NCBI GenBank assembly: GCA_964632485.1
Contig: CAZWDO010000013.1
Location: 62,001-121,187 of the forward strand
Length of the DNA stretch: 59,187 nucleotides
Source: an uncultured bacterium
GTDB lineage: Bacteria; JAGOEH01
Direction: 5' to 3'
A program made the position numbers and the translations under genes. The notes beneath the pieces are model-generated. The model was not told the DNA's origin. It was given only the letters and a program-made list of their open reading frames with translations, and searched no databases. This document shows, one piece after another, positions 3,136 through 21,263 of the stretch (position 1 is the stretch's first letter; each line of letters starts with the position of its first letter).

Positions 3136-4604
3136 TAAATCAACTTGTAGCGTTTTAAACGAGTGTATAGTTGCGTTCGGGTCAATCCCAGGAACCGAGC
3201 GGTTTCGCTGACATTCTTTTTGTTCTGGCGCCACACGTTAGTGATAATTTTCTTATTCCATTCATCCAGCGAAAACGGTTTTGAAAATGCGGGAACCGTT
3301 GATTCCATTTCTTCAATTATCGTATCCTTTTGTCCCTCGGTTTGATGATTGGTTTTAAGAAATCTCAGGTGTCTGGTTTTGATACTGCGTTCATCAAAGA
3401 GCAAAACCACTCGTTCAATGCAGTTTTGCAGTTCCCTGATATTTCCTGGCCAGGGATAGGATTCAAGTAATTCGAGCGCATCCTTTTCAATATATTGGAA
3501 TTGGCGTTTTTTTTCGCGGGAGAATTGTTCCAGAAAAAGTTGCGAGAGGGGCCCAATTTCTTCTTTTCGGTCCCGTAGCGAGGATACATAAATTCGGCCG
3601 GTATTCAACCGGTAGAATAGGTCGGCCCGGAAAAGTCCGAGTTTAACTTTATTGGGTAAATCCACATTAGTGGCGCAGATAATTCGCACATCGACGGAAA
3701 GAGTTTTTGTACCTCCTACCCGATAAAATTCTCGCTGTTCCAAAAATCGCAGGAGCTTAGGCTGAACATCCAAGGGAAGTTCACCTATTTCATCCAGAAA
3801 AAGAGTCCCTCCGTCAGCAAGTTTGATTTTTCCAATTCCACCCCCACGGGCGGATCCGGTAAAAGAGCCAGGCTCATAGCCAAATAGTTCGCTTTCAAAC
3901 AAGGTTGGCGGCAACGCGGCGCAATTTATACTGATAAACGGATGGGTTTCCTGACCTTTCAGACTGTAATGAACCAAACGCGCAATAATCTCTTTCCCAG
4001 TGCCAGTTTCACCTTCTATCAATACCGGAACCGACCGGTCTTTATGTAATTTCTCCGTTAATTCAACTAACAATCGCATGGAGTTAGAAAATATACCGAT
4101 ACGGCCAATGCCAGTTGCATTATCCTGCACAGATTTATAATACCGGGATCGTTCTTCGGCTGTTTCATTATGTTCCTTTAGTTTTTGAATGCTTTCCCTG
4201 AGATGAGTGTTTTCTTTGATCAGACGGTTTTTATCTTCCAGTCGTTTCAATACGATCGCAAGCTCCTGGATATTCAATGGTTTAAGTAAATAATCCACTG
4301 CGCCTAACCGCAACGCCTGAATGGAAGTCTCCATATCTCCATATCCTGTCATAAGGATGACTTCGATCGATGTGTTTCGTGATTTGATTTCTTTCAGCAA
4401 ACTGATCCCATCCATTTGGGGCATTTTAATATCGGTCAGAACGACCGGATGGTAATCTCTATCCAATAAATCCAGAGCTTCAAAGCCGTTACAACAAACC
4501 GAAACCGTATATTCCAATTGATTCTGCAGAAACGCGTTGATGGCCTTGCGGCTAATTTCATCATCTTCCACTAATAAAACTTTCCAGATGTTTGCCTCAG
4601 GCAA
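3135..4604 (-). CDS. Sigma54-dependent response regulator (REC-AAA+-Fis HTH, NtrC family)
   Basis: REC (EDD, DIKMP), GETGTGKE, ESELFGYEPGSFTGS, LFLDEIGE, WPGNIREL and C-terminal HTH. TTG start with an AGGAG RBS. Confidence 0.95.
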   Translation of the reverse strand: MPEANIWKVLLVEDDEISRKAINAFLQNQLEYTVSVCCNGFEALDLLDRDYHPVVLTDIKMPQMDGISLLKEIKSRNTSIEVILMTGYGDMETSIQALRLGAVDYLLKPLNIQELAIVLKRLEDKNRLIKENTHLRESIQKLKEHNETAEERSRYYKSVQDNATGIGRIGIFSNSMRLLVELTEKLHKDRSVPVLIEGETGTGKEIIARLVHYSLKGQETHPFISINCAALPPTLFESELFGYEPGSFTGSARGGGIGKIKLADGGTLFLDEIGELPLDVQPKLLRFLEQREFYRVGGTKTLSVDVRIICATNVDLPNKVKLGLFRADLFYRLNTGRIYVSSLRDRKEEIGPLSQLFLEQFSREKKRQFQYIEKDALELLESYPWPGNIRELQNCIERVVLLFDERSIKTRHLRFLKTNHQTEGQKDTIIEEMESTVPAFSKPFSLDEWNKKIITNVWRQNKKNVSETARFLGLTRTQLYTRLKRYKLI

Positions 4605-9665: not shown

Positions 9666-11828
9666 TCAGAAATTGACGTCGAATCCCAGGTAGAATACGG
9701 TTTTAATATTATCGGAAAAAGCAAATTGCCGGGTCAGTTCAGTATAGGATTCTTTTTTATCGTTAACCAGTTGGGTGTAGATGTTTAAATTACGCATATT
9801 CAAGAACACGCTCATGGTTTCCGTAACTTTATACGCGACTTTCCCGTTAAGAATCAAAGTATTGTAGATTTTACAGTTTTTATTGTACTGATATCTCATA
9901 ACGCTTTGGGACATAAAATAGGGGTTGAGGTTGATATTCAGTCGGCTGTAGGGGACGAAGTTCAAGTAAAATCCGCCGTACCAGTTGGGAGTATAGGCGC
10001 CTTCCTCGGTGACAGCGCTATCAATCGGATTCGACAGGTTTTCCAAAACATCGTCCAGTTCAGAATGCTGCCAGGTGATATAGGGGCGTAATTGAAAATT
10101 TTCATGGAGTATATAATTTAGCGCCAGAGTGACTCCCATTTGCTTGGGTTTAACGGTTAGATTCTGAGCGCTGAAATATACTTTATATTTCGGGGCATAA
10201 ACTGTGGAATCAGTGACCGTGGCCGATGAATAGTCTTGGGCTTTAGCATAGAATAATTCGATATCGGCGTGGAGGTTTTTTCGCAATTTGCCGCGATAAC
10301 CCACTTCAAACATATCCATGGTCATCAGTTTCAGGTCCTGGTTGGGCGAATAATGCATCTCTATGCCCGGCGTTACGTAATGGAAATTGACGTAATTATC
10401 GAGCATATTGGCGCCTTTGTTGGCGCGTGAAACCACAAAGCGGGCCAGATGGTTTTCATTGAATTTCCAGGTGCTGGCGAATTGGTAGGAGAGATACATT
10501 TTGTCGGAAGGGTGATTGTATTGATCGCCGCGTAACGCAACCACGACCCGCAACGGATCGAGCGGTTTGTAATCGGCGCGAAGGGAGTAGCCGGTAGTAG
10601 TCAGGTCGTATTCGCCGTTGAGTAAGGCAAGTCCCGAGCTGGAATTCTTACGCCCGATGGAGTCGTCGATACTGAACTGGCGATAGGAGACGCCTGGCCG
10701 GACGGAGAGCTTATTCTCCAGCAACTGCCAGTCGTATTCCAGGTTTAGGGCTAAGTCGCTGAAATCGTATTCCCAGCCCGTCACGCCGAGGGTATTCTGG
10801 TAGCCTTTGAGATAACTGGCCTGCAGGCTGGCGCCGTACGCTGCGGATTTGAAATCGAGGTATTCGGTTTCCGAGACTTCGGTGGTAAAGGGTGTATTAA
10901 TCACATCCACATAGATTTTTTGAACCTTGGAACGTTGCAGTCCCATGGCAAGTTCAAAATTGATCTTTTCCGAAACTTGGTAGGTATTGAAGAGGTTGAT
11001 GCCGTATTTATCCAGGGCCAGGCTGCGATCGGGATAGCGAAGCGAGCCGGAGCCGCGGAATGCGCCAGCGCCCTGGGTTTGGGGCGAGTAGCAGGAATCG
11101 GGATTATCCCAGTATTTCCCCTTGACGTAATCCCAGTAAGTCGTCTGGTAGCGGTTGCGTTTTTGCATGTTGCCGGAGATGTTGAGGCTGTATTTGCCTT
11201 TGGTGAATCCGGTATTCAGGCTGAAGATATCGGATTGGTAGCTGCCGCGCTGGAAATTGATGATACCGGATTCATTTTTGTCTTCTCCTCCGTTTTTACC
11301 GGCGCGTCTGGTAATAATGTTAATGACGCCGGCGACGGCATTGGGTCCGTAAAGGGCGGAAGAGGGGCCGCGAACGACTTCAATGCGATCAATGTCGGCG
11401 ATTTCGACGGGTAATGATTCCCAATAGGTGCCGCCCTGGAAATCGCGGAACACAATGCGGTTATCGATCATGACCAGGGTAATCTGATTCTGCGTGTAGG
11501 GCAAGGCTGAATAGGGAATATAGTCAAAACCGCGCAAATGGGGGTCATAAACGCCGTTGGTCTGTTCTCGAACAATCAGACCCGGAATCAGGCGCAAGGC
11601 TTCGGCAATCGTCGTAACTCCGGCGTTTTTCAGTTCCTGGGCGCTGATCACCGATGCGGATAAGGGCGCATCAAAACTACTTTCGGCCTTTTTGGACGCG
11701 GAAACAATTTCCATGTTCATCAAATCTTCCAGCGACATCTCAGCTAACTGGTCAATATTCAATTCCTGCGCAGAGAGAGAAATCCACCAGCAAAACACGA
11801 TGCTGATCAACAAAATTACTTTTTTCAT
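9666..11828 (-). CDS. TonB-dependent outer-membrane receptor
   Basis: Signal peptide, plug motif RIEVVRGPSSALYGPNAVAGVINIIT, beta-barrel and C-terminal Phe. Confidence 0.95.
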   Translation of the reverse strand: MKKVILLISIVFCWWISLSAQELNIDQLAEMSLEDLMNMEIVSASKKAESSFDAPLSASVISAQELKNAGVTTIAEALRLIPGLIVREQTNGVYDPHLRGFDYIPYSALPYTQNQITLVMIDNRIVFRDFQGGTYWESLPVEIADIDRIEVVRGPSSALYGPNAVAGVINIITRRAGKNGGEDKNESGIINFQRGSYQSDIFSLNTGFTKGKYSLNISGNMQKRNRYQTTYWDYVKGKYWDNPDSCYSPQTQGAGAFRGSGSLRYPDRSLALDKYGINLFNTYQVSEKINFELAMGLQRSKVQKIYVDVINTPFTTEVSETEYLDFKSAAYGASLQASYLKGYQNTLGVTGWEYDFSDLALNLEYDWQLLENKLSVRPGVSYRQFSIDDSIGRKNSSSGLALLNGEYDLTTTGYSLRADYKPLDPLRVVVALRGDQYNHPSDKMYLSYQFASTWKFNENHLARFVVSRANKGANMLDNYVNFHYVTPGIEMHYSPNQDLKLMTMDMFEVGYRGKLRKNLHADIELFYAKAQDYSSATVTDSTVYAPKYKVYFSAQNLTVKPKQMGVTLALNYILHENFQLRPYITWQHSELDDVLENLSNPIDSAVTEEGAYTPNWYGGFYLNFVPYSRLNINLNPYFMSQSVMRYQYNKNCKIYNTLILNGKVAYKVTETMSVFLNMRNLNIYTQLVNDKKESYTELTRQFAFSDNIKTVFYLGFDVNF

Positions 11829-12270: not shown

Positions 12271-13865
12271 TTAGTTTTTGATTTTGAATTCGTGCTTAAA
12301 GTAACGGAAAATGGTGCGAATTGGAATAAAGGGAGATTGTCCCAGGGCGCAAAGACAGGTTTTATTCATAATGGAAGCTGTTTTTTCAATCAGCTTCAGA
12401 TCCTCCTCATTGCCTTCGCCAGCGATCATTTTTTCTAATAAACGCACAAGAGTGTCCGTACCGTTACGGCAGGGAGAGCATTTCCCACAGGATTCATGAC
12501 GAAAGAATTTGAGCATGGAAAGTAGCATTTCGGGCATTCCGATCTGGTCATCCATGATCAGCAGCGCGCCGGAACCCAGCGCGGTTTCTTTTTCTGCTAA
12601 GGAATCATAGTCCATGGGGGTTTCCCACAATGCGCGGGGGATAATCCCGCCGGCGGTGCCACCGGTTTGCGCGGCTTTAAATTGGCGGCCGACTTTCATC
12701 CCGCCGCCATAGGTTTCGATGATTTCCCTGAGAGAGATACCCATCGGCACTTCGATCAATCCGGTATTATTGACGCTGCCTAAGAGTGTAAATACTTTCG
12801 TTCCTGGATTGCGTGGAGTACCGATTTTTTTAAATGCGTCGGCGCCTTTGCGCATGATCCAGGGGATATTGGCTAAGGTTTCCACATTGTTTACCAATGT
12901 GGGTTGCCCTNNNNNNNNNNTTTAAAGCCATAGGTATTGGGGTAAGGGGGTTTGACGCGGGGATTGCCGCGTTTGCCTTCCATCGATTCCAATAGCGCTG
13001 TTTCCTCACCGCAGACATAGGCGCCAGCGCCGGTACGCACTTCAATATCGAAACTGAAATCGGTACCCAGAATGCCATTACCCAGGAATCCGACCATCCG
13101 GGCTTTGTGGAGGGCCTGTTCCAGTTTTTCGATGGATAAGGCGTATTCACCGCGGATATAGACATAGCCTTTACTTGCGCCGATCGCATAGGCGGCAATC
13201 GCCATTCCTTCGATCACGGCATGCGGGCTGCCTTCCATGATCAGGCGGTCCTTGAAGGTTCCCGGTTCGCCTTCATCGGCGTTACAGACTACGTATTTAG
13301 GTATTGCGCCGACTTTAGCGGTGAATTCCCATTTCAAGCCTGTAGGAAATCCGGCGCCTCCGCGTCCGCGCAGGCCCGATTCTTTAATGGTGGCGATCAC
13401 TTCGCCCGGTTTCATCTCGGTTACGGCTTTGACCAACCCTTCGTATCCATCGTAGGCGATATATTCCTCGATATCATCGGGGCTGATCACTCCACACCGA
13501 TGTAAAACAATGCGTTGCTGTTGCGCGAGTGTGGATTTTGAAAGCGAATAGGCCACGGATTTAGGAGTGTCTGCTATAGGCGTCAGGAGGTACTCGTTAA
13601 CAGTGCGTCCTTTATAGAAGTGTTCTTCCACGATGCGTCGGGCCTTTTCTACACTCAAATGACCATAGAAAATATTATCGGGCAGGACATGGATTACCAC
13701 TCCTTTATTTGCAAATCCCATGTTGCCGGTTTCAATGACCCGAATCTCATTCTTAAGGCCTTTTTCGGCAATCGCCAGTTCCAATGCGTCTTTTACTTCT
13801 CTCGCCCCCTGCAACAGGTCGGTCACATCGGAAGATACAAGTATGTGCATGCGATATAAAGTCAT
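12271..13865 (-). CDS. NuoF/HydB-like FMN/NADH-binding subunit, short non-bifurcating type (spans N-gap 12911-12920)
   Basis: GRGGAGFPTG, ADEGEPGTFKD, GAYVCGEE, ESCGKCSPC and C-x-LG. The flanks of the gap join as YGFK|GQPTLVNNVETL. No C-terminal ferredoxin domain. Confidence 0.9.
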
Positions 13866-13881
13866 CCTTTTTCCTCCCCGG

Positions 13882-14358
13882 TTAGGCCAGATTGGCCAGG
13901 ATTTCTTTGATTTTTGAGGGCGTCAAATTACCGTGCATATCGTCGTTAATCATCATCGCCGGAGCAACGGCGCATATTCCCAGACAACTGCTGAGTTCCA
14001 GGGTGAATTTGCCGTCTTGGGTCGTTTCACCGACATTGATTTTCAGATAATTCTTCAGGAAATCGAGAATCGAATCACTACCCATTAAATGACACGGTGG
14101 AGAATCGCATAGCCGTATGATGTGCTTGCCGCGCGGTTGGGTAGAAAACAGACTGTAAAAGGTGACGACCCCGTACAGTTTTGAAAGCGGCATATCCAGT
14201 TTTCGGCTCAAATAATCCAACACTCCGGTCGGCAATGAATAGTTAAACAGTTTTTCAACTTCTTTAAGAAGCATGAGCAACATTCCGTCAGCAACATCGA
14301 ACTGACTTATCAGTGTATCCAATTGCGCTTGGATTTCAGGTTTTAAACTTTCAGTCAT
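13882..14358 (-). CDS. NuoE/HydC-like [2Fe-2S] subunit (second copy)
   Basis: GVVTFYSLF, CDSPPC and CLGIC ligands. Confidence 0.92.
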   Translation of the reverse strand: MTESLKPEIQAQLDTLISQFDVADGMLLMLLKEVEKLFNYSLPTGVLDYLSRKLDMPLSKLYGVVTFYSLFSTQPRGKHIIRLCDSPPCHLMGSDSILDFLKNYLKINVGETTQDGKFTLELSSCLGICAVAPAMMINDDMHGNLTPSKIKEILANLA

Positions 14359-14373
14359 TGATCTCTCCTTCCC

Positions 14374-16128
14374 CTACTTTTCGCGAGGTACGATAACAGG
14401 CCGCGGTTTGTAATGGGTATGGAGCAGGTGGTGTGATTTTTCGCCCAACGGTTTTTTCAGGAACAGTTCATAAATCTTGGTAATCGATGGATTTTCATGG
14501 GATTTACGAATGGTCTGTCTGTCATCGTCGCTGTAAATTGCTTCAGTCCGTTTTTTACGGGTTTCTTCGTTAGTGGGTATCGGTTGTCCACCACCCCCGA
14601 TACAGCCTCCGGGACAGGTCATGACTTCGATAAAAGCATAGGGACTTTGGCCTTTTCGTATTTGGTCGAGCAATTGACGAGCATTTGAGAGTCCATGGGC
14701 AATCGCAATTTTAACCGGGGTGCCATCAAGGTCCACCGTGGCTTCACGAATACCTTTCAAGCCGCGAACCGCATCGAATTCGATTTTGGGTAAGGGTTTT
14801 TTCAAGTAAACTTCATAAACAGTACGCAATGCCGCTTCCATAACACCGCCTGTGGCGCCGAAGATTACGGCGGCTCCGGTAGATTCACCCAGCGGATCGT
14901 CATATTTCTCTTCGGTTAACAAAGAAAACTCAATACCGGCCATACGGATCCAGCGGCCCATTTCGCGAACGGTCAAAACATAATCCACATCCTGGTACCC
15001 GGAAGCGCGCATTTCGGGACGTTGGCATTCGTATTTTTTGGCGGTACAGGGCATCAGCGATACTGAAACAATTTTAGCGGGATCAATCCCCATCTTTTCA
15101 GCCCAGTAGGTCTTGATTAATGGTCCCATCATCTGTTGAGGCGATTTACAGGTGGAAATATGTTCCAATAGATCAGGGTAAAAGGTTTCACAAAACCGAA
15201 CCCATCCCGGAGAACAGGATGTAATCATCGGTAGCGTACCGCTGTTTGTAAGCCGGTGCAACAGTTCATTTCCTTCTTCGATGATCGTGAGATCAGCGGT
15301 AAAATCGGTATCGAAAACATACTTGAAACCCAATCGACGGAGGGCGGCAACCATTTTCCCGGTTACGATTGAACCATTGGGCATGCCTACTTCCTCACCC
15401 AGCGCTACGCGGGTGGCAGGAGCGGTTTGAATGACGACCACTTTTTGTGGGTCATTCATAGCATTAATGACGTCGTCAACATTTTCTTTTTCATAGAGCG
15501 CGCCAACCGGGCAAGCCAGTATGCACTGGCCGCAGTTAATGCAGTAGGAATCGGATAGTTTGGGGAATCCGGCGGCGGAAATATGGGATTCATAGCCGCG
15601 GTTTGCGAAATCAATGGCATTTACCGTTTGCACCACAGAGCAGGTCTGGACGCAACGGCCGCAAAGAATACAGCGGTCATAATCGCGGCATACCGCAGGA
15701 CCGGCATCATCCACGCCTTTTTCCCGTTGATTAACCATCGCATTGCCATACGGATTGGCGCGGATTGAGTACTGTTCTGCCAGAGTTTGCAATTCGCAGT
15801 TTCCGTTGCGGGTACAGGTGTTGCAATCATGAACGCCGCTGGAAAGCAGAAGTTCCAGTACTGTGCGGCGGGCTTCCACCACATTCTGGTTGTGGGTATA
15901 GATTACCATGCCATCGCGTTCGATCGGCAGAGCGCAAGAGGCCTGTAGTCCGCGCATCCCTTCTACTTCAACCATACAGACGCGGCAGGCGCCGGGATAA
16001 TAATTCAAAGCGGGATACATACACAAAGTCGGAATCTTGATTCCCAGTTCTCGGACCGCGTCGATGACCCGGGTTCCGGGTTCCACTTCGCATTTGATAC
16101 CATCTATTGTTACGTTGACTTTACTCAT
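14374..16128 (-). CDS. hydA: [FeFe]-hydrogenase group A catalytic subunit (HydA/HndD-like)
   Basis: H-cluster motifs TSCSPGW, MPCTAKKYE and EVMTCPGGCIGGGGQP; N-terminal 2Fe-2S, His-ligated 4Fe-4S and 2x4Fe-4S; ends with LLHTHY. Confidence 0.97.
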   Translation of the reverse strand: MSKVNVTIDGIKCEVEPGTRVIDAVRELGIKIPTLCMYPALNYYPGACRVCMVEVEGMRGLQASCALPIERDGMVIYTHNQNVVEARRTVLELLLSSGVHDCNTCTRNGNCELQTLAEQYSIRANPYGNAMVNQREKGVDDAGPAVCRDYDRCILCGRCVQTCSVVQTVNAIDFANRGYESHISAAGFPKLSDSYCINCGQCILACPVGALYEKENVDDVINAMNDPQKVVVIQTAPATRVALGEEVGMPNGSIVTGKMVAALRRLGFKYVFDTDFTADLTIIEEGNELLHRLTNSGTLPMITSCSPGWVRFCETFYPDLLEHISTCKSPQQMMGPLIKTYWAEKMGIDPAKIVSVSLMPCTAKKYECQRPEMRASGYQDVDYVLTVREMGRWIRMAGIEFSLLTEEKYDDPLGESTGAAVIFGATGGVMEAALRTVYEVYLKKPLPKIEFDAVRGLKGIREATVDLDGTPVKIAIAHGLSNARQLLDQIRKGQSPYAFIEVMTCPGGCIGGGGQPIPTNEETRKKRTEAIYSDDDRQTIRKSHENPSITKIYELFLKKPLGEKSHHLLHTHYKPRPVIVPREK

Positions 16129-16153
16129 CGGTTATAAACTCCTCCCTGTCAGG

Positions 16154-19100
16154 TTAGGCTTGACGATCACAACGCAGGCAGCGTTTGGCCTCTTCCATGG
16201 CCAATTCAACGGCATATCCCAGTTCCACTTCCGGGAATTTTACACTGAAACGCTGATTCGAGGGCAAGCTCGGCATGATTCGTTGCGGTTGCTCAATTAT
16301 CTCTTCATCTTCCGGCGGTATTGGAATTTCAATATCTGTTTCTGGGAGAGGTTGATATTGAAACTTAACCGTTTCGTTGTTCAGATATTTCTGAATGTGA
16401 TTGGCGGCTTTATGGCCAGCCTGCATGGCTTCGATAACGGTTTTAGGACCGCTAACTGCATCTCCGCCGGCAAAAATGCCTGCTTCACCCGTATAAAGCG
16501 TATCGGAATCAACTTCCAGCGTATTCCAGCGTGAAACTTTTATGGCTGGATGAGCGGATAGGAAATCAATATTTACGGATTGGCTGACAGCCGGGATAAC
16601 CATATCCACTTCCATCATAAACTCACTTCCGTCAAGAGGTACCGGTTTGCGGCGCCCACTGCGGTCGAACTCACTTAATTCCATCTTGATGCATTCTAAT
16701 GCTTCGACGTTCTTTTTGCCCAGAATTTTGATGGGAGCGGCCATGAAAATGAACTCAATCCCTTCGTGTTCCGCTTCCATAATTTCCTCAGAATCAGCGG
16801 GCATGTGTTCTTTTTGACGGCGATAGACAATAGTTACTTTTTCCGCGCCCAATCGTAAGAGGGTTCGGGCCGAATCGATCGCGGCATTGCCGCCGCCGAT
16901 TACAGCGATTTTCTTTCCGATTGGCACATTCTTACCCAGATTAATGTCCCGCAGGAAATCGGTTCCGTGCATCACGCCGGCCAATTCCTCCCCGGGGATT
17001 GCCAATTTAAGACTCTCTTGAGCGCCGACAGCGATGAAAAGTGCTTGATAATCCTGGAGGATGCTCTCAAAACTGATATCTTTGCCCACTTGGGTGTTGC
17101 ATTTAATGTCCACTCCCATGTGTTTGATATAGCGGACTTCATAATCCAGAATTTCTGCCGGCAACCGATAGTTGGGGATTCCCCAGGCTAGCATTCCGCC
17201 GGCTTTGGGCATACTTTCGAAAATGGTGACCTGGAATCCTGCCAGGGCCAGATCGTAAGCGGCGGTTAAACCGGCCGGACCGCCACCAATAATAGCCACT
17301 TTTTCCTGGCGTGGATTTTTTGCTATGGGCACTTGAATATGGGGTTGATTTTGGATTTCCCAATCTGATGCAAAGCGTTTGAGCCATTTGATGGCGATGG
17401 GGTCATCGGTCTGGCCGCGACGGCATTTGCTTTGGCATGGATGATGGCATACACGGCCGCAAATTCCAGGTAACGGATTGCGTTCGCGAATTAATTGCAA
17501 CGCATCCTTAAATCGCCCTTCACCGATCAACGCCACGTAACCCGGTACATTGAGTCCCACCGGACACGTATTTTGGCAGGGAGAGGTAAAGAGTGAGGAA
17601 CAGACACTGGCCGAGCAGTGTTTATGTTTAATATGCTCTTCATATTCATGACGAAAATAACGCAACGTACTCAACACCGGATTCGCGGCCGTCTGTCCGA
17701 GTCCGCAGAGAGCGGTTTTAGTGATCTGTTCGCCCAGTGTGATCAGCAGATCGATATCAGACATCTCGCCTTCGCCGCGGGTGATTTTATTGAGAATCTG
17801 CAACATTTTTCTGGTGCCCACGCGGCATGGAGTACATTTGCCACACGATTCTTCGACGATAAAATCCATGAAAAATCGCGCCAGATCGACCATGCAGGTG
17901 TCTTCGTCCATTACGATCAGACCTCCGGAACCCACGATGGATCCGAGTTTTTTTAAAGATTCATAATCGACGGAAGTATTAAGATAGGGTACCGGGATAC
18001 AGCCACCGGAAGGACCGCCGGCCTGGACAGCTTTGAATTCTTTGCCTTTGGGAATTCCGCCGCCGATATCATAAATGATTTCGCCTAAGGGAATGCCCAT
18101 GGGAACTTCGATCAAGCCGGTGTTGTTAATGGCGCCGGCGAGGGCGAAGACTTTTGTGCCTTTGCTTCCCTCTGTTCCCCATTGGGCGAACCATTCTCCG
18201 CCATTGAGGATGATTGGTGGGATATTGGCATAGGTCTCTACGTTATTTAGCAATGATGGACAATCGAAAAGGCCCTTGATGGCAGGATATGGCGGACGGG
18301 GACGGGGCATCCCGCGTTTTCCTTCTACAGAATTGATCAGAGCGGTTTCCTCGCCGCAGACAAATGCGCCAGCGCCGACCCTGATATCGATATCGAACGA
18401 AAAATCCGTGCTCAAAATCTGATTGCCCAGCAGTCCATATTCCCGCGCTTGCAGGATCGCTTTGGAGGTTCGTTCGATGGCTAAGGGGTATTCGGCGCGG
18501 CAGTAAATAAAACCCTGGTTGGCGCCAATGGTGTATCCTGCAATCGCCATCGCTTCCAGTACGGAATGGGGGTCGCCTTCCAGAACGGAACGATCCATAA
18601 ATGCTCCTGGATCGCCTTCATCGGCGTTACAAAGGACATACTTCTGTTCTCCCGGCGATTGACGAGCTAAATCCCACTTGATTCCGGTCGGGAATCCGCC
18701 ACCGCCGCGGCCACGTAATCCGGAAGTTTTGATCGTTTGGACAACTTCTTCGGGCTTCATTTCCGTCAACACTTTAGCGAGGGCCTGATACCCTTCGCGG
18801 GCAATATATTCATCAATTTTTTCGGGATCGATAATCCCGGAATTGCGCAATACTACTTTTATCTGACGTTTGAAAAAGGGAATATCCGCATAATTGGCAA
18901 TTTCCTGCTGACTCTGTTTTTCCTTGTAGAGCAGACGGGTGACCGGGCGGCCTTTCAGAAAGTGTTCTTCAACGATGAGGGGCACATCTTCCGGATTGAC
19001 TTTTTGATAAAAAACACCTTCGGGATAAATCAGGACGACGGGGCCAATGTCGCAGGCTCCCACGCAACCGGTTTGGATCAATTTGATCTCATCCGTCAGT

Positions 19101-19207
19101 TTGTTCCGGAGAATCTCTTCCTCCAGCGCCTGAAAAACGGACATACTTCCGGAAGAAAGGCAGGCGCCGCCGGCACAAACCAGAACTTGCATACGATACA
19201 TCTTCAT
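16154..19207 (-). CDS. HydB/HndC (NuoF-like) subunit fused to a GltD/NfnL-like FAD/NADPH oxidoreductase
   Basis: N-terminal Trx-like 2Fe-2S (4 Cys), ADEGDPGAFMD, GAFVCGEE, GGPSGG, ESCGKCTPC and HxxxxxCxxxxC. Then GltD motifs PCQNTCP, CGRVCHHPC, GGGPAG, GIPNYRLP, GGGNAA, YRR, AGGD and RCLRC. Confidence 0.93.
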   Translation of the reverse strand: MKMYRMQVLVCAGGACLSSGSMSVFQALEEEILRNKLTDEIKLIQTGCVGACDIGPVVLIYPEGVFYQKVNPEDVPLIVEEHFLKGRPVTRLLYKEKQSQQEIANYADIPFFKRQIKVVLRNSGIIDPEKIDEYIAREGYQALAKVLTEMKPEEVVQTIKTSGLRGRGGGGFPTGIKWDLARQSPGEQKYVLCNADEGDPGAFMDRSVLEGDPHSVLEAMAIAGYTIGANQGFIYCRAEYPLAIERTSKAILQAREYGLLGNQILSTDFSFDIDIRVGAGAFVCGEETALINSVEGKRGMPRPRPPYPAIKGLFDCPSLLNNVETYANIPPIILNGGEWFAQWGTEGSKGTKVFALAGAINNTGLIEVPMGIPLGEIIYDIGGGIPKGKEFKAVQAGGPSGGCIPVPYLNTSVDYESLKKLGSIVGSGGLIVMDEDTCMVDLARFFMDFIVEESCGKCTPCRVGTRKMLQILNKITRGEGEMSDIDLLITLGEQITKTALCGLGQTAANPVLSTLRYFRHEYEEHIKHKHCSASVCSSLFTSPCQNTCPVGLNVPGYVALIGEGRFKDALQLIRERNPLPGICGRVCHHPCQSKCRRGQTDDPIAIKWLKRFASDWEIQNQPHIQVPIAKNPRQEKVAIIGGGPAGLTAAYDLALAGFQVTIFESMPKAGGMLAWGIPNYRLPAEILDYEVRYIKHMGVDIKCNTQVGKDISFESILQDYQALFIAVGAQESLKLAIPGEELAGVMHGTDFLRDINLGKNVPIGKKIAVIGGGNAAIDSARTLLRLGAEKVTIVYRRQKEHMPADSEEIMEAEHEGIEFIFMAAPIKILGKKNVEALECIKMELSEFDRSGRRKPVPLDGSEFMMEVDMVIPAVSQSVNIDFLSAHPAIKVSRWNTLEVDSDTLYTGEAGIFAGGDAVSGPKTVIEAMQAGHKAANHIQKYLNNETVKFQYQPLPETDIEIPIPPEDEEIIEQPQRIMPSLPSNQRFSVKFPEVELGYAVELAMEEAKRCLRCDRQA

Positions 19208-19224
19208 TTAGCGTTGCCTCCTTA

Positions 19225-19584
19225 TCATTTTAGCAGGTAGGATTCGACGGGTTGTCCGTTGATCACATGATCGTTGATGATCCGGCGGATTTTATCAGAC
19301 GATACAAATTCATATTTAACGCTTTGATTGTCGGTTTCTATAGTAACAATCGGTTCTCGATCGCACAAACCGATGCAACTGCTTTGTGAAACGGCAATAT
19401 CTTTCAATCCCCGTTTGGAAATCTCATCCATTACAGCATTCAAAACGTCTCGGGCACCGGCGGCTATTCCACAGGTTCCCATGTGAACAATGATTTTTTT
19501 AGTGAATTGGGTGCTCCGCTCCTGGGAAATTCCTTCATTTGTTTCCTTTATCTTGCGGAGGTCGCTTAGGGTAAGTTTTGCCAT
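19225..19584 (-). CDS. Thioredoxin-like [2Fe-2S] ferredoxin subunit (HndB/HydD-like)
   Basis: VHMGTCGIAAGA and SCIGLCDREP motifs. Confidence 0.9.
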   Translation of the reverse strand: MAKLTLSDLRKIKETNEGISQERSTQFTKKIIVHMGTCGIAAGARDVLNAVMDEISKRGLKDIAVSQSSCIGLCDREPIVTIETDNQSVKYEFVSSDKIRRIINDHVINGQPVESYLLK

Positions 19585-19597
19585 ATTTGTTCCTCCA

Positions 19598-20095
19598 TCA
19601 ATCGTATTTTGCCAGGATTTCGTTGATTTTCGTGACTTTCATGCGTTGAAACACTTCCTCGTCCACCACCATAACTGGCGCTAAGCCGCAGGCGCCGACA
19701 CAACGGTTAATTTCCAGTGTAAATCGCAGGTCTTTCGTGGTTTGATTGATGGATATACCCAATTCCTTGTTGATGTGCTCGAGTATCCTTTTCCCACCAC
19801 GGACGTAGCAAGCCGTACCCAGGCAAACCCGGATCGTATGGCGTCCTCGGGGTACCATCGTAAAAAAGGAATAAAAGGTTACGACTCCGTAAATTTCACT
19901 CAAGGGAATTACCATTTTGTCTGAAATATATTTCTGGACAAGTAACGGCAGATACCCAAAAATCCCCTGGGCCTGGTGAAGCACCATGATCAGGCTTCCT
20001 GGCACTTCCCGATAATGCTCGATAACCTGGTCCAGCAGACGATATTTTTCCTCTTCTGGAAGTTGATCGGGATGGATGTCCTTAAGGTTTAACAA
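19598..20095 (-). CDS. NuoE/HydC/HndA-like [2Fe-2S] subunit (first copy)
   Basis: LHQAQGIFGYLP, GVVTFYSFF, CLGTAC and CVGAC; GGAGG RBS before the TTG start. Confidence 0.93.
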   Translation of the reverse strand: MLNLKDIHPDQLPEEEKYRLLDQVIEHYREVPGSLIMVLHQAQGIFGYLPLLVQKYISDKMVIPLSEIYGVVTFYSFFTMVPRGRHTIRVCLGTACYVRGGKRILEHINKELGISINQTTKDLRFTLEINRCVGACGLAPVMVVDEEVFQRMKVTKINEILAKYD

Positions 20096-20176: not shown

Positions 20177-20303
20177 GCCTGAAAAATTTATTATTGAAAA
20201 GATTGGGAACTTTTTTACTAAAACTGATTTTAATAAGCGACTTTAAGTTTTAGTGTTCTTATTGATCTTTAATCCAAAAATAACTTTAAATAAGGAGTTG
20301 CGC

Positions 20304-21263
20304 ATGATCAATATCCGTCAATTAACTCGCTATTATGGCCATTTTCTGGCCGTCGACAATATCAGTTTTGATGTTAATAAGGGAGAAATTCTGGGTTTTT
20401 TAGGCCCGAATGGCGCCGGTAAAACCACGACGATGAAGATGATTACGGGCTTTTTAATGCCAAGCGCCGGGACCATTACCATCGATGAGCTTGATGTCGT
20501 GCAGAACCCTATGAAGATTAAACAAAAGATCGGTTATCTGCCCGAACATAACGCCCTTTACTTGGATATGAACATTATTGAATATTTGACGTTTATCATG
20601 GAAGCGAGAGGGATTGACAAAAACCTCTACCGATCGCGTTTACAATACGTTATTGACGTATGTGGATTGAGCCGGGAGCTGACAAAGAATATCGGCCAAC
20701 TCTCAAAAGGGTATCGTCAACGCGTCGGTTTGGCTCAAGCCTTGATCCATGATCCTGAAATTCTAATTCTGGATGAGCCAACGGTTGGCCTGGACCCCAA
20801 CCAAATTGTTGAAATCCGCAACCTTATTAAAAAAATTGGTGAGCAAAAAACGATTATCTTGTCAACCCACATTCTACCGGAAGTTGAAGTAACTTGTAAT
20901 CGTGTGATTATTATTAATAAAGGCAGTATTGCCGCGATGGGTAGTCTGGATGAATTGCACAAATCCTTTGCCGGCAATGATAAACTAAAAGTTGTCGTTG
21001 AAGGCGACCATCAGGATAAAGCCTCTATCTTCACTTCCCTGAACGCAGTTTTGACTCATACAGTAGCCTTCAATGGGGAAGAAACGACGTTTGAGCTCGG
21101 CGTTGAAAAAGACCAAGATATCCGGAGTGATATTAGAAACCTTCTCAGCGCAAATAAAATTCCCCTATTGGAATTGAAACGGGAACCAGCCAGTCTTGAA
21201 ACAGTTTTCCACTCATTGACAATTGACCAACCGGAATTACCATCCACGCAAACCAACGCCTAA
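20304..21263 (+). CDS. ABC transporter ATP-binding protein (GldA-like)
   Basis: GPNGAGKTT, LSKGYRQR, ILDEPT and STHIL; AAGGAG RBS before the ATG at 20304. Confidence 0.92.
   Translation: MINIRQLTRYYGHFLAVDNISFDVNKGEILGFLGPNGAGKTTTMKMITGFLMPSAGTITIDELDVVQNPMKIKQKIGYLPEHNALYLDMNIIEYLTFIMEARGIDKNLYRSRLQYVIDVCGLSRELTKNIGQLSKGYRQRVGLAQALIHDPEILILDEPTVGLDPNQIVEIRNLIKKIGEQKTIILSTHILPEVEVTCNRVIIINKGSIAAMGSLDELHKSFAGNDKLKVVVEGDHQDKASIFTSLNAVLTHTVAFNGEETTFELGVEKDQDIRSDIRNLLSANKIPLLELKREPASLETVFHSLTIDQPELPSTQTNA

Follow-up and report, generated by a model that had tools for sequence, protein, structure and literature searches.

One [FeFe]-hydrogenase gene and two types of flavoprotein module in a putative operon of an uncultured JAGOEH01 bacterium

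A stretch of DNA of 59,187 nucleotides from an uncultured bacterium of the GTDB lineage JAGOEH01 (GenBank assembly GCA_964632485.1, contig CAZWDO010000013.1, positions 62,001 to 121,187 of the forward strand; hereafter the window) carries six consecutive genes for a single [FeFe]-hydrogenase catalytic subunit, HydA, and two different pairs of NuoE/HydC-like and NuoF/HydB-like subunits (BC pairs). NuoE1 and NuoF1 form the pair with the residues of electron-bifurcating enzymes, and NuoE2 and NuoF2 that with the residues of non-bifurcating enzymes. We consider it probable (about 0.6) that the six genes encode one enzyme system, in which a single HydA uses both flavoprotein modules. The GltD fusion of NuoF1 and the short type represented by NuoF2 have each been published as a hydrogenase sub-type of its own, and what is new is their combination in an operon with a single HydA. 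No description of a bifurcating and a non-bifurcating BC pair sharing an operon and a catalytic subunit was found in the literature searched, including term look-ups in PMC9304861, PMC7311640, PMC11406978 and PMC6288185 (supplements and figures lay outside this scope), and literature on Thermotoga maritima locus tags yielded unrelated papers only.

Module 1 would consist of NuoE1, a small thioredoxin-like (Trx-like) protein and NuoF1::GltD, that is, a bifurcating core in which the ferredoxin-docking domain has been swapped for an NfnB/GltD-like flavin adenine dinucleotide (FAD) domain. It should link the H-cluster to NAD(H) at flavin mononucleotide (FMN) and, because the NfnB/GltD-like domain replaces the ferredoxin-docking domain, to NADP(H) at FAD; a role of ferredoxin is possible besides. 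Module 2, NuoE2 and NuoF2, would be a complex-I-like, non-bifurcating NADH:iron-sulphur (FeS) module passing electrons directly between NADH and HydA, as in the NADH-only hydrogenases of syntrophs. We infer that both modules dock on HydA, most likely as mixed protomers within one multimer, which would make a redox hub joining H2, NADH and NADPH. One multimer is favoured because the genes are likely co-transcribed, the two pairs travel together even without a catalytic gene, and HydABC-type enzymes are multimeric, built of two or four ABC units. The T. maritima HydABC is a multimer of ABC units, a tetramer of trimers. The related StnABC is also a tetramer of trimers (PMC10482914).

The operon and its two flavoprotein types

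20176-20148, minus strand: promoter-like site TTGACA-17-TATATT, 11 of 12 consensus matches, about 50 nt 5' of nuoE1
19598-20095, minus strand: nuoE1, a hydC/hndA-like [2Fe-2S] subunit of 165 aa with a TTG start (PF01257 at 163.5 bits, both Cys pairs)
19225-19584, minus strand: small Trx-like protein (HndB/HydD-like) of 119 aa with 3 Cys only (PF01257 at 23.3 bits, cut-off 24.8)
16154-19207, minus strand: nuoF1::gltD, 1017 aa (Pfam)
17585-19207, minus strand: nuoF1 core, residues 1-541, bifurcating-type HydB/BfuB (Pfam, signatures and tree)
16154-17584, minus strand: GltD/NfnB-like C-terminal module of NuoF1, residues 542-1017 (PF14691, PF07992)
14374-16128, minus strand: hydA, [FeFe]-hydrogenase of 584 aa with M3-type N-terminal FeS domains (PF02906 at 338 bits, PF02256, PF13510, PF10588)
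13882-14358, minus strand: nuoE2, a second NuoE/HydC-like [2Fe-2S] subunit of 158 aa (PF01257 at 154.5 bits)
12271-13865, minus strand: nuoF2, short non-bifurcating-type NuoF/HydB, 527 aa without the scaffold gap (Pfam on both parts)
12250-12224, minus strand: intrinsic terminator-like hairpin, 12-bp stem with 7 G-C pairs and a T run, 21 nt past the nuoF2 stop

An initial annotation of the window, made from its letters alone, had placed six open reading frames (ORFs) in this order with short gaps between them. All of them lie where it had put them, the intergenic distances being 13, 17, 25, 15 and 16 nt, and the strand, which is minus for all six, is added here as a correction. Each of the six assignments is backed by Pfam, and a GGAGG-type ribosome site stands ahead of each of the six starts. 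The first four genes follow the order E, small Trx-like, F, A, which is that of the hnd genes. The single promoter and single terminator noticed at first correspond to one promoter-like site at the 5' end and one strong terminator at the 3' end, both consensus matches, and a promoter/terminator scan gave no minus-strand terminator of comparable strength inside the operon. Promoter-like sites in the region number 13 against a shuffle mean of 13.2, and TTGACA-17-TATATT is to be read as a consensus match only. Gaps of 13-25 nt leave no space for an internal promoter. Because of these gaps, the ribosome site of each gene, the one promoter-like site and the one strong terminator, the six genes likely form one transcription unit, as judged from sequence.

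In the ORF listing, nuoF2 appears as two ORFs of 324 and 208 aa around 10 N at 12911-12920. Such 10-N runs occur 99 times in the genome and mark scaffold joins. The nuoF2 orthologs of two related genomes, G001 (same family) and G002 (same order), are unbroken proteins of 531 and 527 aa, to which the two parts from the window align contiguously, 1-315 and then 316-524, with no residue missing. Two DNA runs of a different sample, X2 and X3, gave contigs that bridge the gap and skip exactly 11 letters at 12910, namely the ten N and one base; the halves are therefore joined in frame. On these three grounds, a frameshift or split of nuoF2 is rejected: NuoF2 is an intact 527-aa protein, and the break is an assembly artefact. 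The initial annotation had treated nuoF2 as one gene, which is right as to the gene, and the scaffold gap dividing it into two ORFs is to be added.

The two types of flavoprotein are told apart by printed criteria. The β-subunit of bifurcating enzymes has A/E232 with M234, F367 and GGPSG (T. maritima HydB numbering), and that of NADH-only enzymes has T/S, K/S/A and Y and no GGPSG (Losey et al., 2020; PMC7311640); in Acetomicrobium mobile the bifurcating residues are F182, A202 and M204 (Schut et al., 2022; PMC9304861). The differences that had been called established at first are these same criteria. The NuoF1 core comprises N-terminal [2Fe-2S] Cys residues, an FMN/NAD(H) site, an SLBB domain and a [4Fe-4S] domain, and among solved structures it comes closest to 7t2r_B and 7q4v_B (E ~1e-235). 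Its NADH site reads DPGAFMD and thus has the Ala/Glu + Met combination of bifurcating enzymes, and GAGAFVCGEE and GGPSG provide the Phe near FMN and the motif of the SLBB region. The motifs initially picked out in NuoF1 (ADEGDPGAFMD, GAFVCGEE and GGPSG) and in NuoF2 (ADEGEPGTFKD, GAYVCGEE and GGTAG) are all present, as is HIKHKHCSASVC in NuoF1. The N-terminal Trx-like domain of NuoF1 (PF01257 on residues 5-81) has CCCC at four aligned positions.

NuoF2 carries T and K in EPGTFKD, Y in GAGAYVCGEE and GGTAG in place of GGPSG. It ends 5 residues past its 4Fe-4S domain, as was first noticed, and has none of the additional FeS domains known from the bifurcating type, with no C-terminal clusters; its N-terminal Trx-like domain is Cys-less, with S/D/N/A where the NuoF1 type has four Cys. 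NuoF2 thus shows all four printed features of the NADH-only hydrogenases (T, K, Y and no GGPSG), along with fewer FeS domains (PMC7311640). Whereas those enzymes are stand-alone with a HydA of their own, NuoF2 has none of its own and keeps the Cys-less N-terminal domain, so that it is likened to them by signature (PMC7311640). With the same qualification, the likeness of NuoF2 to the Hyd1 type of Syntrophomonas wolfei, put forward in the initial annotation, stands by signature; the tree described next was built without the proteins of S. wolfei and Syntrophus aciditrophicus.

The two signature sets separate without exception in an alignment of 96 HydB/NuoF-like sequences and 4 complex-I-type outgroups, taken from the fetched loci, the two related genomes and the window genome (G000). 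A quick maximum-likelihood analysis of the core region (101 rows; IQ-TREE, LG+G4) places all 80 bifurcating-signature sequences in one clade with a Shimodaira–Hasegawa-like approximate likelihood ratio (SH-aLRT) support of 100, and NuoF1 is inside it. The 17 short-type sequences form a basal grade between this clade and the complex-I-type outgroup. NuoF1 clusters with the GltD-fused proteins of two loci, L043 and L070 (99), and NuoF2 and its orthologs with short types of Anaerolineae (97). The GltD fusion is scattered across the tree, where at least 5 changes are forced. The small subunits differ as well: NuoE2 is only about 41% identical to NuoE1, while NuoE1 is 84% and NuoE2 73% identical to the respective G001 ortholog. 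In the loci examined, an E2-type gene always precedes the short-type F gene.

In the HydBC-type core, NAD(H) reacts at FMN, and low-potential electrons pass via C-terminal clusters to ferredoxin. NuoF1 lacks the C-terminal B3/B4 ferredoxin domain of the Bfu family and has Fer4_20 and Pyr_redox_2 instead: in residues 542-1017, a 2x[4Fe-4S] domain and an FAD/NADP(H) fold of the pyridine-nucleotide-disulphide-oxidoreductase kind take the place of the C-terminal 2x[4Fe-4S] ferredoxin domain of HydB. The closest solved chains of this module are NfnA of the Bfu-type NfnABC (9n5u_A), 9bov_A, T. maritima NfnB (4ylf_B) and StnC (8oh5_C). The final 26 residues of NuoF1 (…RCLRC…) align with the N-terminus of NfnB, and the GltD domain is therefore permuted, as in the inserts of StnC and NfnA. 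The module contains GGGNAA and then YRR; YRR is common to NfnB in the alignment, and GGGNAA fits the GxGxxA motif assigned to NADP(H) (Kremp et al.; PMC7483475). The NfnB Arg called R201 was considered as a marker of a bifurcating FAD and set aside as non-discriminating, since it is kept here and also in StnC.

The partner of NuoE2 and NuoF2

The six-gene order, including nuoE2 and nuoF2, is kept in both related genomes (2 of 2), which answers the question of synteny raised by the initial annotation; the small Trx-like gene is kept in both of them and in most related clusters. The proteins of the operon are 68-86% identical to those of the related genomes (79% for HydA). Synonymous sites are saturated in these comparisons, with a proportion of synonymous differences (pS) of 0.71-0.95, and the nonsynonymous divergence (dN) from G001 is 0.15-0.19 for nuoE2 and nuoF2, not far from the 0.12-0.16 found for the remaining genes of the operon, and rises to as much as 0.25 for G002 (0.15-0.25 for nuoE2 and nuoF2 over both genomes). 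By these values, nuoE2 and nuoF2 are under purifying selection across the order.

The assembly to which the window belongs is 97.95% complete and contains 6 NuoE and 6 NuoF/HydB-like genes versus 5 NuoG-type partners, namely 4 HydA and 1 Stn/NfnA-like protein. The four NuoG-type partners other than the HydA of the operon each adjoin a BC pair of their own. With six NuoEF pairs to five partners, NuoE2F2 therefore has no catalytic partner of its own in the assembly. The initial annotation had named another catalytic subunit, such as formate dehydrogenase, as the kind of partner that would separate NuoE2F2 from HydA. The genome gave 0 matches for the molybdopterin/formate dehydrogenase family and 0 for PF00384, PF10588 matched the 4 HydA only, and no spare NuoG-type gene was found. 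A protein on contig C12, the only further match of PF13510/Fer2_4, was considered as a partner and rejected, as it belongs to an unrelated Pyr_redox_2/DAO system. For a seventh Complex1_51K match of about 460 aa, BLAST against NuoF1 gave nothing at E<1e-8, and its length suggests a putative RnfC-like protein.

The same genome holds a Stn/NfnABC-like cluster at 372598-378347 of contig C1, with a NuoE, a 602-aa HydB-type protein, a HydA N-terminal piece and a 1052-aa GltD-containing protein, the last two of which are maybe one gene. Three further HydABC sets are found on C1 (about 69-76 kb), C14 (about 80-86 kb) and C3 (about 15-19 kb), and two of them adjoin sensory-type HydA-like genes.

The initial annotation had proposed modelling HydA with each BC pair, and for the second pair the docking model passed its controls. 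With residues 1-230 of the G001 HydA, NuoF2 and NuoE2, the score was 0.87 versus 0.25 for the best of 3 controls; of 157 solved complexes 116 attain the mark applied, as do 2 of 215 mismatched pairs. At least 95% of contacts recur between the runs, the partners have a predicted local distance difference test (pLDDT) value of at least 82, and the contacts lie around the [4Fe-4S] region of NuoF2. In the model, the HydA docking surface for NuoE2F2 looks intact. Because HydABC and complex I are already solved, this amounts to a likeness rather than a proof of binding by this copy.

Recurrence of the pairing and competing explanations

Species genomes were scanned twice, first with the N-terminal part of NuoF2 (79 loci) and then with NuoF1::GltD (80 loci), and the loci were annotated by motifs and by BLAST comparison with the six proteins of the operon. 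Short-type genes number 22 (17 from the first set, the related genomes and the window, and 5 from the second set), and 19 of the 22 share a cluster with a bifurcating-type pair, this being a biased sample in that both queries come from the operon itself. Among the GltD-fused loci of the second scan, only 5 of 46 have a short pair. These counts leave out L020 and L022, in which the second F is cut by a contig end, L024, in which an E2-type gene follows the bifurcating F with no short F, and a 616-aa protein of L182 that matches the motif pattern only. The pairing was found in at least 8 lineages at the phylum level, and the catalytic gene beside the pair of pairs is an FeFe hydrogenase, an NiFe hydrogenase, a formate dehydrogenase (Fdh) or none.

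In the following, E and F denote the bifurcating pair, E' and F' the short pair and Fd the small Trx-like gene. The arrangement E-Fd-F::GltD-E'-F'-HydA, with the six genes of the window reordered around a single HydA, is found in L083, L142, L143 and L144. In L019, a HydA-like N-terminus comes after E-Fd-F-E'-F', where the contig ends. The Thermodesulfobacteriota locus L145 (386-8261) has F::GltD-FdhA-E'-F', which is the window order with Fdh replacing HydA; its FdhA has an in-frame TGA at 4525-4527 in the context C-A-R-L-TGA-H-S, which is selenocysteine-like. The arrangement E-(HATPase)-Fd-F-E'-F' with a NuoG-like gene next occurs in L027, L030, L033, L037 and L050 (Anaerolineae) and L172 (Caldilineaceae), of which L027 and L037 were run against Pfam; in L027, genes for the NiFe small and large subunits come after the NuoG-like gene. 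In L059, the same arrangement is followed by a formate-dehydrogenase-like protein. L043 has F::GltD-HydA-E'-F'-HydA, with a HydA for each module.

As a side observation, L027 (4340-13630), L030, L033, L037 and L050 resemble NiFe clusters of the HydABCSL kind, with the short E'F' genes between the bifurcating-type B and the A genes. The bifurcating-type B of these five loci is without N-terminal [2Fe-2S] Cys, and GGPMG replaces GGPSG.

Besides the sampling bias of the scans and the matter of HydA maturation taken up below, the following points weigh against a single HydA serving both modules. The HydA tree does not settle with which module the window HydA co-evolved. Run X4, a metatranscriptome from sediment, has two contigs of 151 nt that match hydA exactly within 14836-15184 of the window, with short imperfect pieces elsewhere, which hints at the hydA of a near-identical organism in this RNA library (word share 0.05 of sampled words, with carry-over of DNA possible). 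These contigs span no gene junction and so bear neither on co-transcription nor on assembly. Two Thermotogota loci, L018 (6795-11620) and L063 (6501-11605), one of them in the complete genome of a cultured Fervidobacterium, have E-Fd-F-E'-F' with no HydA, NiFe or Fdh gene nearby and with unrelated flanks. Because these pairs stand without a catalytic gene, the short type may have the bifurcating pair, rather than HydA, as its constant partner. The three exceptions to the pairing, L015-L017, have Fd-E'-F'-HydA without a clustered bifurcating pair (the L017 genome has a long HydB on the same strand, 11.5 kb upstream), and stand-alone short-type hydrogenases are in print as sub-type II (PMC11406978). 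A non-bifurcating NADH module on the same FeS chain could moreover short-circuit the bifurcating core, which speaks against a free exchange of electrons; one complex with a direct NADH wire would need gating against this.

In another reading, HydA would enter strictly alternative complexes, HydA-NuoE1-Fd-NuoF1::GltD or HydA-NuoE2-NuoF2, never mixed and chosen by H2 pressure and NAD(P)H ratios; this corresponds to the swap that the initial annotation had set beside a single complex of all six subunits. Each type exists as a whole hydrogenase with its own HydA, both side by side in L043 and the short type alone in L015-L017; sub-types I and II have been described separately (PMC11406978), and the NADH-only enzymes need a low H2 pressure to work (PMC7311640). 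Separation would also avoid the short circuit. However, co-transcription offers no means of choice, and a fixed partnership better fits a pairing that is found without a catalytic subunit (L018 and L063) and with NiFe hydrogenase or Fdh. We regard strictly alternative complexes as rather unlikely, although worth keeping in mind.

It is improbable that NuoE2F2 does not use HydA at all, being the remnant of a second hydrogenase whose HydA was lost and serving now as a third-substrate input to the bifurcating core or as a free NADH diaphorase. L043, with F::GltD-HydA-E2-Fshort-HydA, would then be an ancestor-like arrangement, and the Thermotogota operons without a catalytic subunit would be of the same kind; PF01512 frames of about 538-553 aa occur in at least 46 of 121 Thermotogota genomes (150 of 395 matches listed; by length alone). 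In L083 and L142-L144, however, HydA stands directly after E2-Fshort and the bifurcating pair upstream. The purifying selection on nuoE2 and nuoF2 across the order and the docking of NuoE2F2 on HydA, the latter as a likeness to solved complexes, also speak against a NuoE2F2 that does not use HydA.

The HydA of the operon has Acetobacterium woodii HydA1 (7q4v_A) as its closest solved chain (E 9e-184) and contains all three H-cluster motifs P1-P3 (TSCxPxW, MPCxAKK and ExMxCPGGCxxGxGQ) as TSCSPGW, MPCTAKK and EVMTCPGGCIGGGGQ; its sequence carries MPCTAKKYE and EVMTCPGGCIGGGGQP. A dead HydA of the StnC kind, suspected from TSCSP, was rejected, as TSCSPGW is identical in the active A. woodii HydA1 and Ser is common at the fifth position of motif P1 (Zheng and Huang, 2024; PMC11406978). 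Nonetheless, models of HydE, HydF and HydG gave no match over the cut-off in the 97.95% complete assembly, and HydG has no match in G001 (92% complete). HydG is present in G002, and the G002 protein gave no match in the window genome by tblastn. The downstream neighbours of the G002 HydG gene have counterparts there with 31-69% identity (56-69% for 3 of 4; contig C17, 43719-51193), the syntenic place lies on a continuous 81.7-kb contig, and the next gene there is not HydG. Because HydE, HydF and HydG were not found in the assembly, an active H-cluster is not assured. Either hydEFG may lie on unbinned DNA, or the family may mature its HydA-like proteins, 4 full HydA and 2 of the sensory type in this genome, in another way.

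It is hence conceivable, though very improbable, that HydA is inactive as a hydrogenase for want of maturases and that the complex performs FeS/flavin electron transfer, for example as a StnABC-like NADH/NADPH transhydrogenase. The missing maturases, including HydG at its syntenic place, would be accounted for, and StnC is a precedent of a HydA/NuoG-like protein without hydrogenase function (PMC10482914). The intact H-cluster motifs and the 79% identity of HydA to its orthologs with low dN speak for a hydrogenase instead, as do the retention of four HydA and two sensory-type genes in a genome whose bin, like many, may miss contigs, and the separate Stn/NfnABC-like cluster elsewhere in it.

A HydA that uses both modules thus remains the preferred reading. 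Beyond this operon, we tentatively propose, at odds well short of even, that the short, Cys-poor NuoE'F' pair is the regular partner of the BfuBC core, instead of an alternative to it, in an as yet undescribed dual-flavoprotein Bfu class; its non-bifurcating and bifurcating modules would share one complex, which could be plugged onto an FeFe hydrogenase, an NiFe hydrogenase, an Fdh or nothing. If such a class exists, the window would encode an enzyme of six subunits through which electrons pass between H2, NADH and NADPH, possibly with transhydrogenation independent of H2.

Relation to described enzymes and significance

With the HydABC(D)/HndABCD enzymes of the Bfu family (A. woodii 7q4v, Thermoanaerobacter kivui 8a6t and T. 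maritima 7p5h; PMC9304861), the operon shares HydA, the NuoF1 core, the bifurcating residues and the N-terminal [2Fe-2S] ligands. In contrast, the C-terminal 2x[4Fe-4S] domain, which is invariant by the definition of the family (PMC9304861), is replaced here by the GltD module, and the second, non-bifurcating BC pair is an addition to the HydABC/Hnd plan. StnABC and NfnABC (Sporomusa ovata 8oh5 and Caldicellulosiruptor saccharolyticus 9n5u) have the same bifurcating HydBC core with a GltD-like NADPH/FAD domain in permuted order. In StnABC, this domain takes up NADPH at its FAD and supplies the core with electrons while being itself non-bifurcating, and StnC is the HydA/NuoG-like protein (PMC10482914). 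The GltD domain of Stn and Nfn is inserted in an A subunit without an H-cluster, whereas that of the window is fused C-terminally to the B subunit, with a full HydA as the A subunit.

The closest likenesses of the two B subunits come from group A3 hydrogenases of Hydrogenedentota (Zheng and Huang, 2024; PMC11406978). Sub-type I BfuB there has DPD_II and an FAD/NAD(P) domain replacing B3/B4, which NuoF1::GltD resembles; sub-type II BfuB, which is without B3, B4 and B5 and is called non-bifurcating, resembles NuoF2 (PMC11406978). The two sub-types are in separate gene clusters, each with its own BfuA, whereas the window has both BC sets in one operon with one HydA; strains with sub-type II nearly always hold another sub-type somewhere in the genome (PMC11406978). 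HydB without the extra clusters characterises NADH-only hydrogenases, which make H2 only at low H2 pressure (PMC7311640, PMC11406978). In a Vallitalea genome, one HydB carries a GltD domain and a second, encoded at a different locus, is without the 2x[4Fe-4S] domain (PMC6163223). The fdh cluster of Clostridium aceticum contains one fdhA, two HydB-like and two HydD-like genes (Wiechmann and Mueller, 2021; PMC7911925). Its HydB copies, however, are 82% identical, both are described as like the bifurcating HylB of Gottschalkia acidurici, one HydC is named, and there is no pairing of a bifurcating with a non-bifurcating type (PMC7911925). Apart from this cluster, the literature searched gave no printed instance of a catalytic subunit accompanied by duplicated B subunits.

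The site and mechanism of electron-pair splitting in HydABC-type enzymes are still under debate. Operons with both flavoprotein types on one catalytic subunit provide a natural comparison, in which the same HydA can be assayed with either module or both. If both modules are in one complex, gating of electrons against a short circuit is required and would be informative for the mechanism of bifurcation. With such an enzyme, a fermenter could release or consume H2 against NADH alone when H2 is low, and otherwise against NADH and NADPH (or ferredoxin); metabolic models of uncultured anaerobes are yet without the option of a two-module hydrogenase. As the pairing occurs in at least 8 phylum-level lineages among the loci examined, it is not a curiosity of one genome, and its interest lies in its recurrence with different catalytic subunits across many phyla.

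The flanks of the operon were read by eye from translations. At 9666-11828 on the minus strand lies a putative TonB-dependent-receptor-like gene of 720 aa with a signal-peptide-like start, and at 20253-21263 on the plus strand a putative divergent gene for an ABC-transporter ATPase-like protein. In G002, a gene of 725 aa similar to the 720-aa receptor-like gene is found 3' of the operon.

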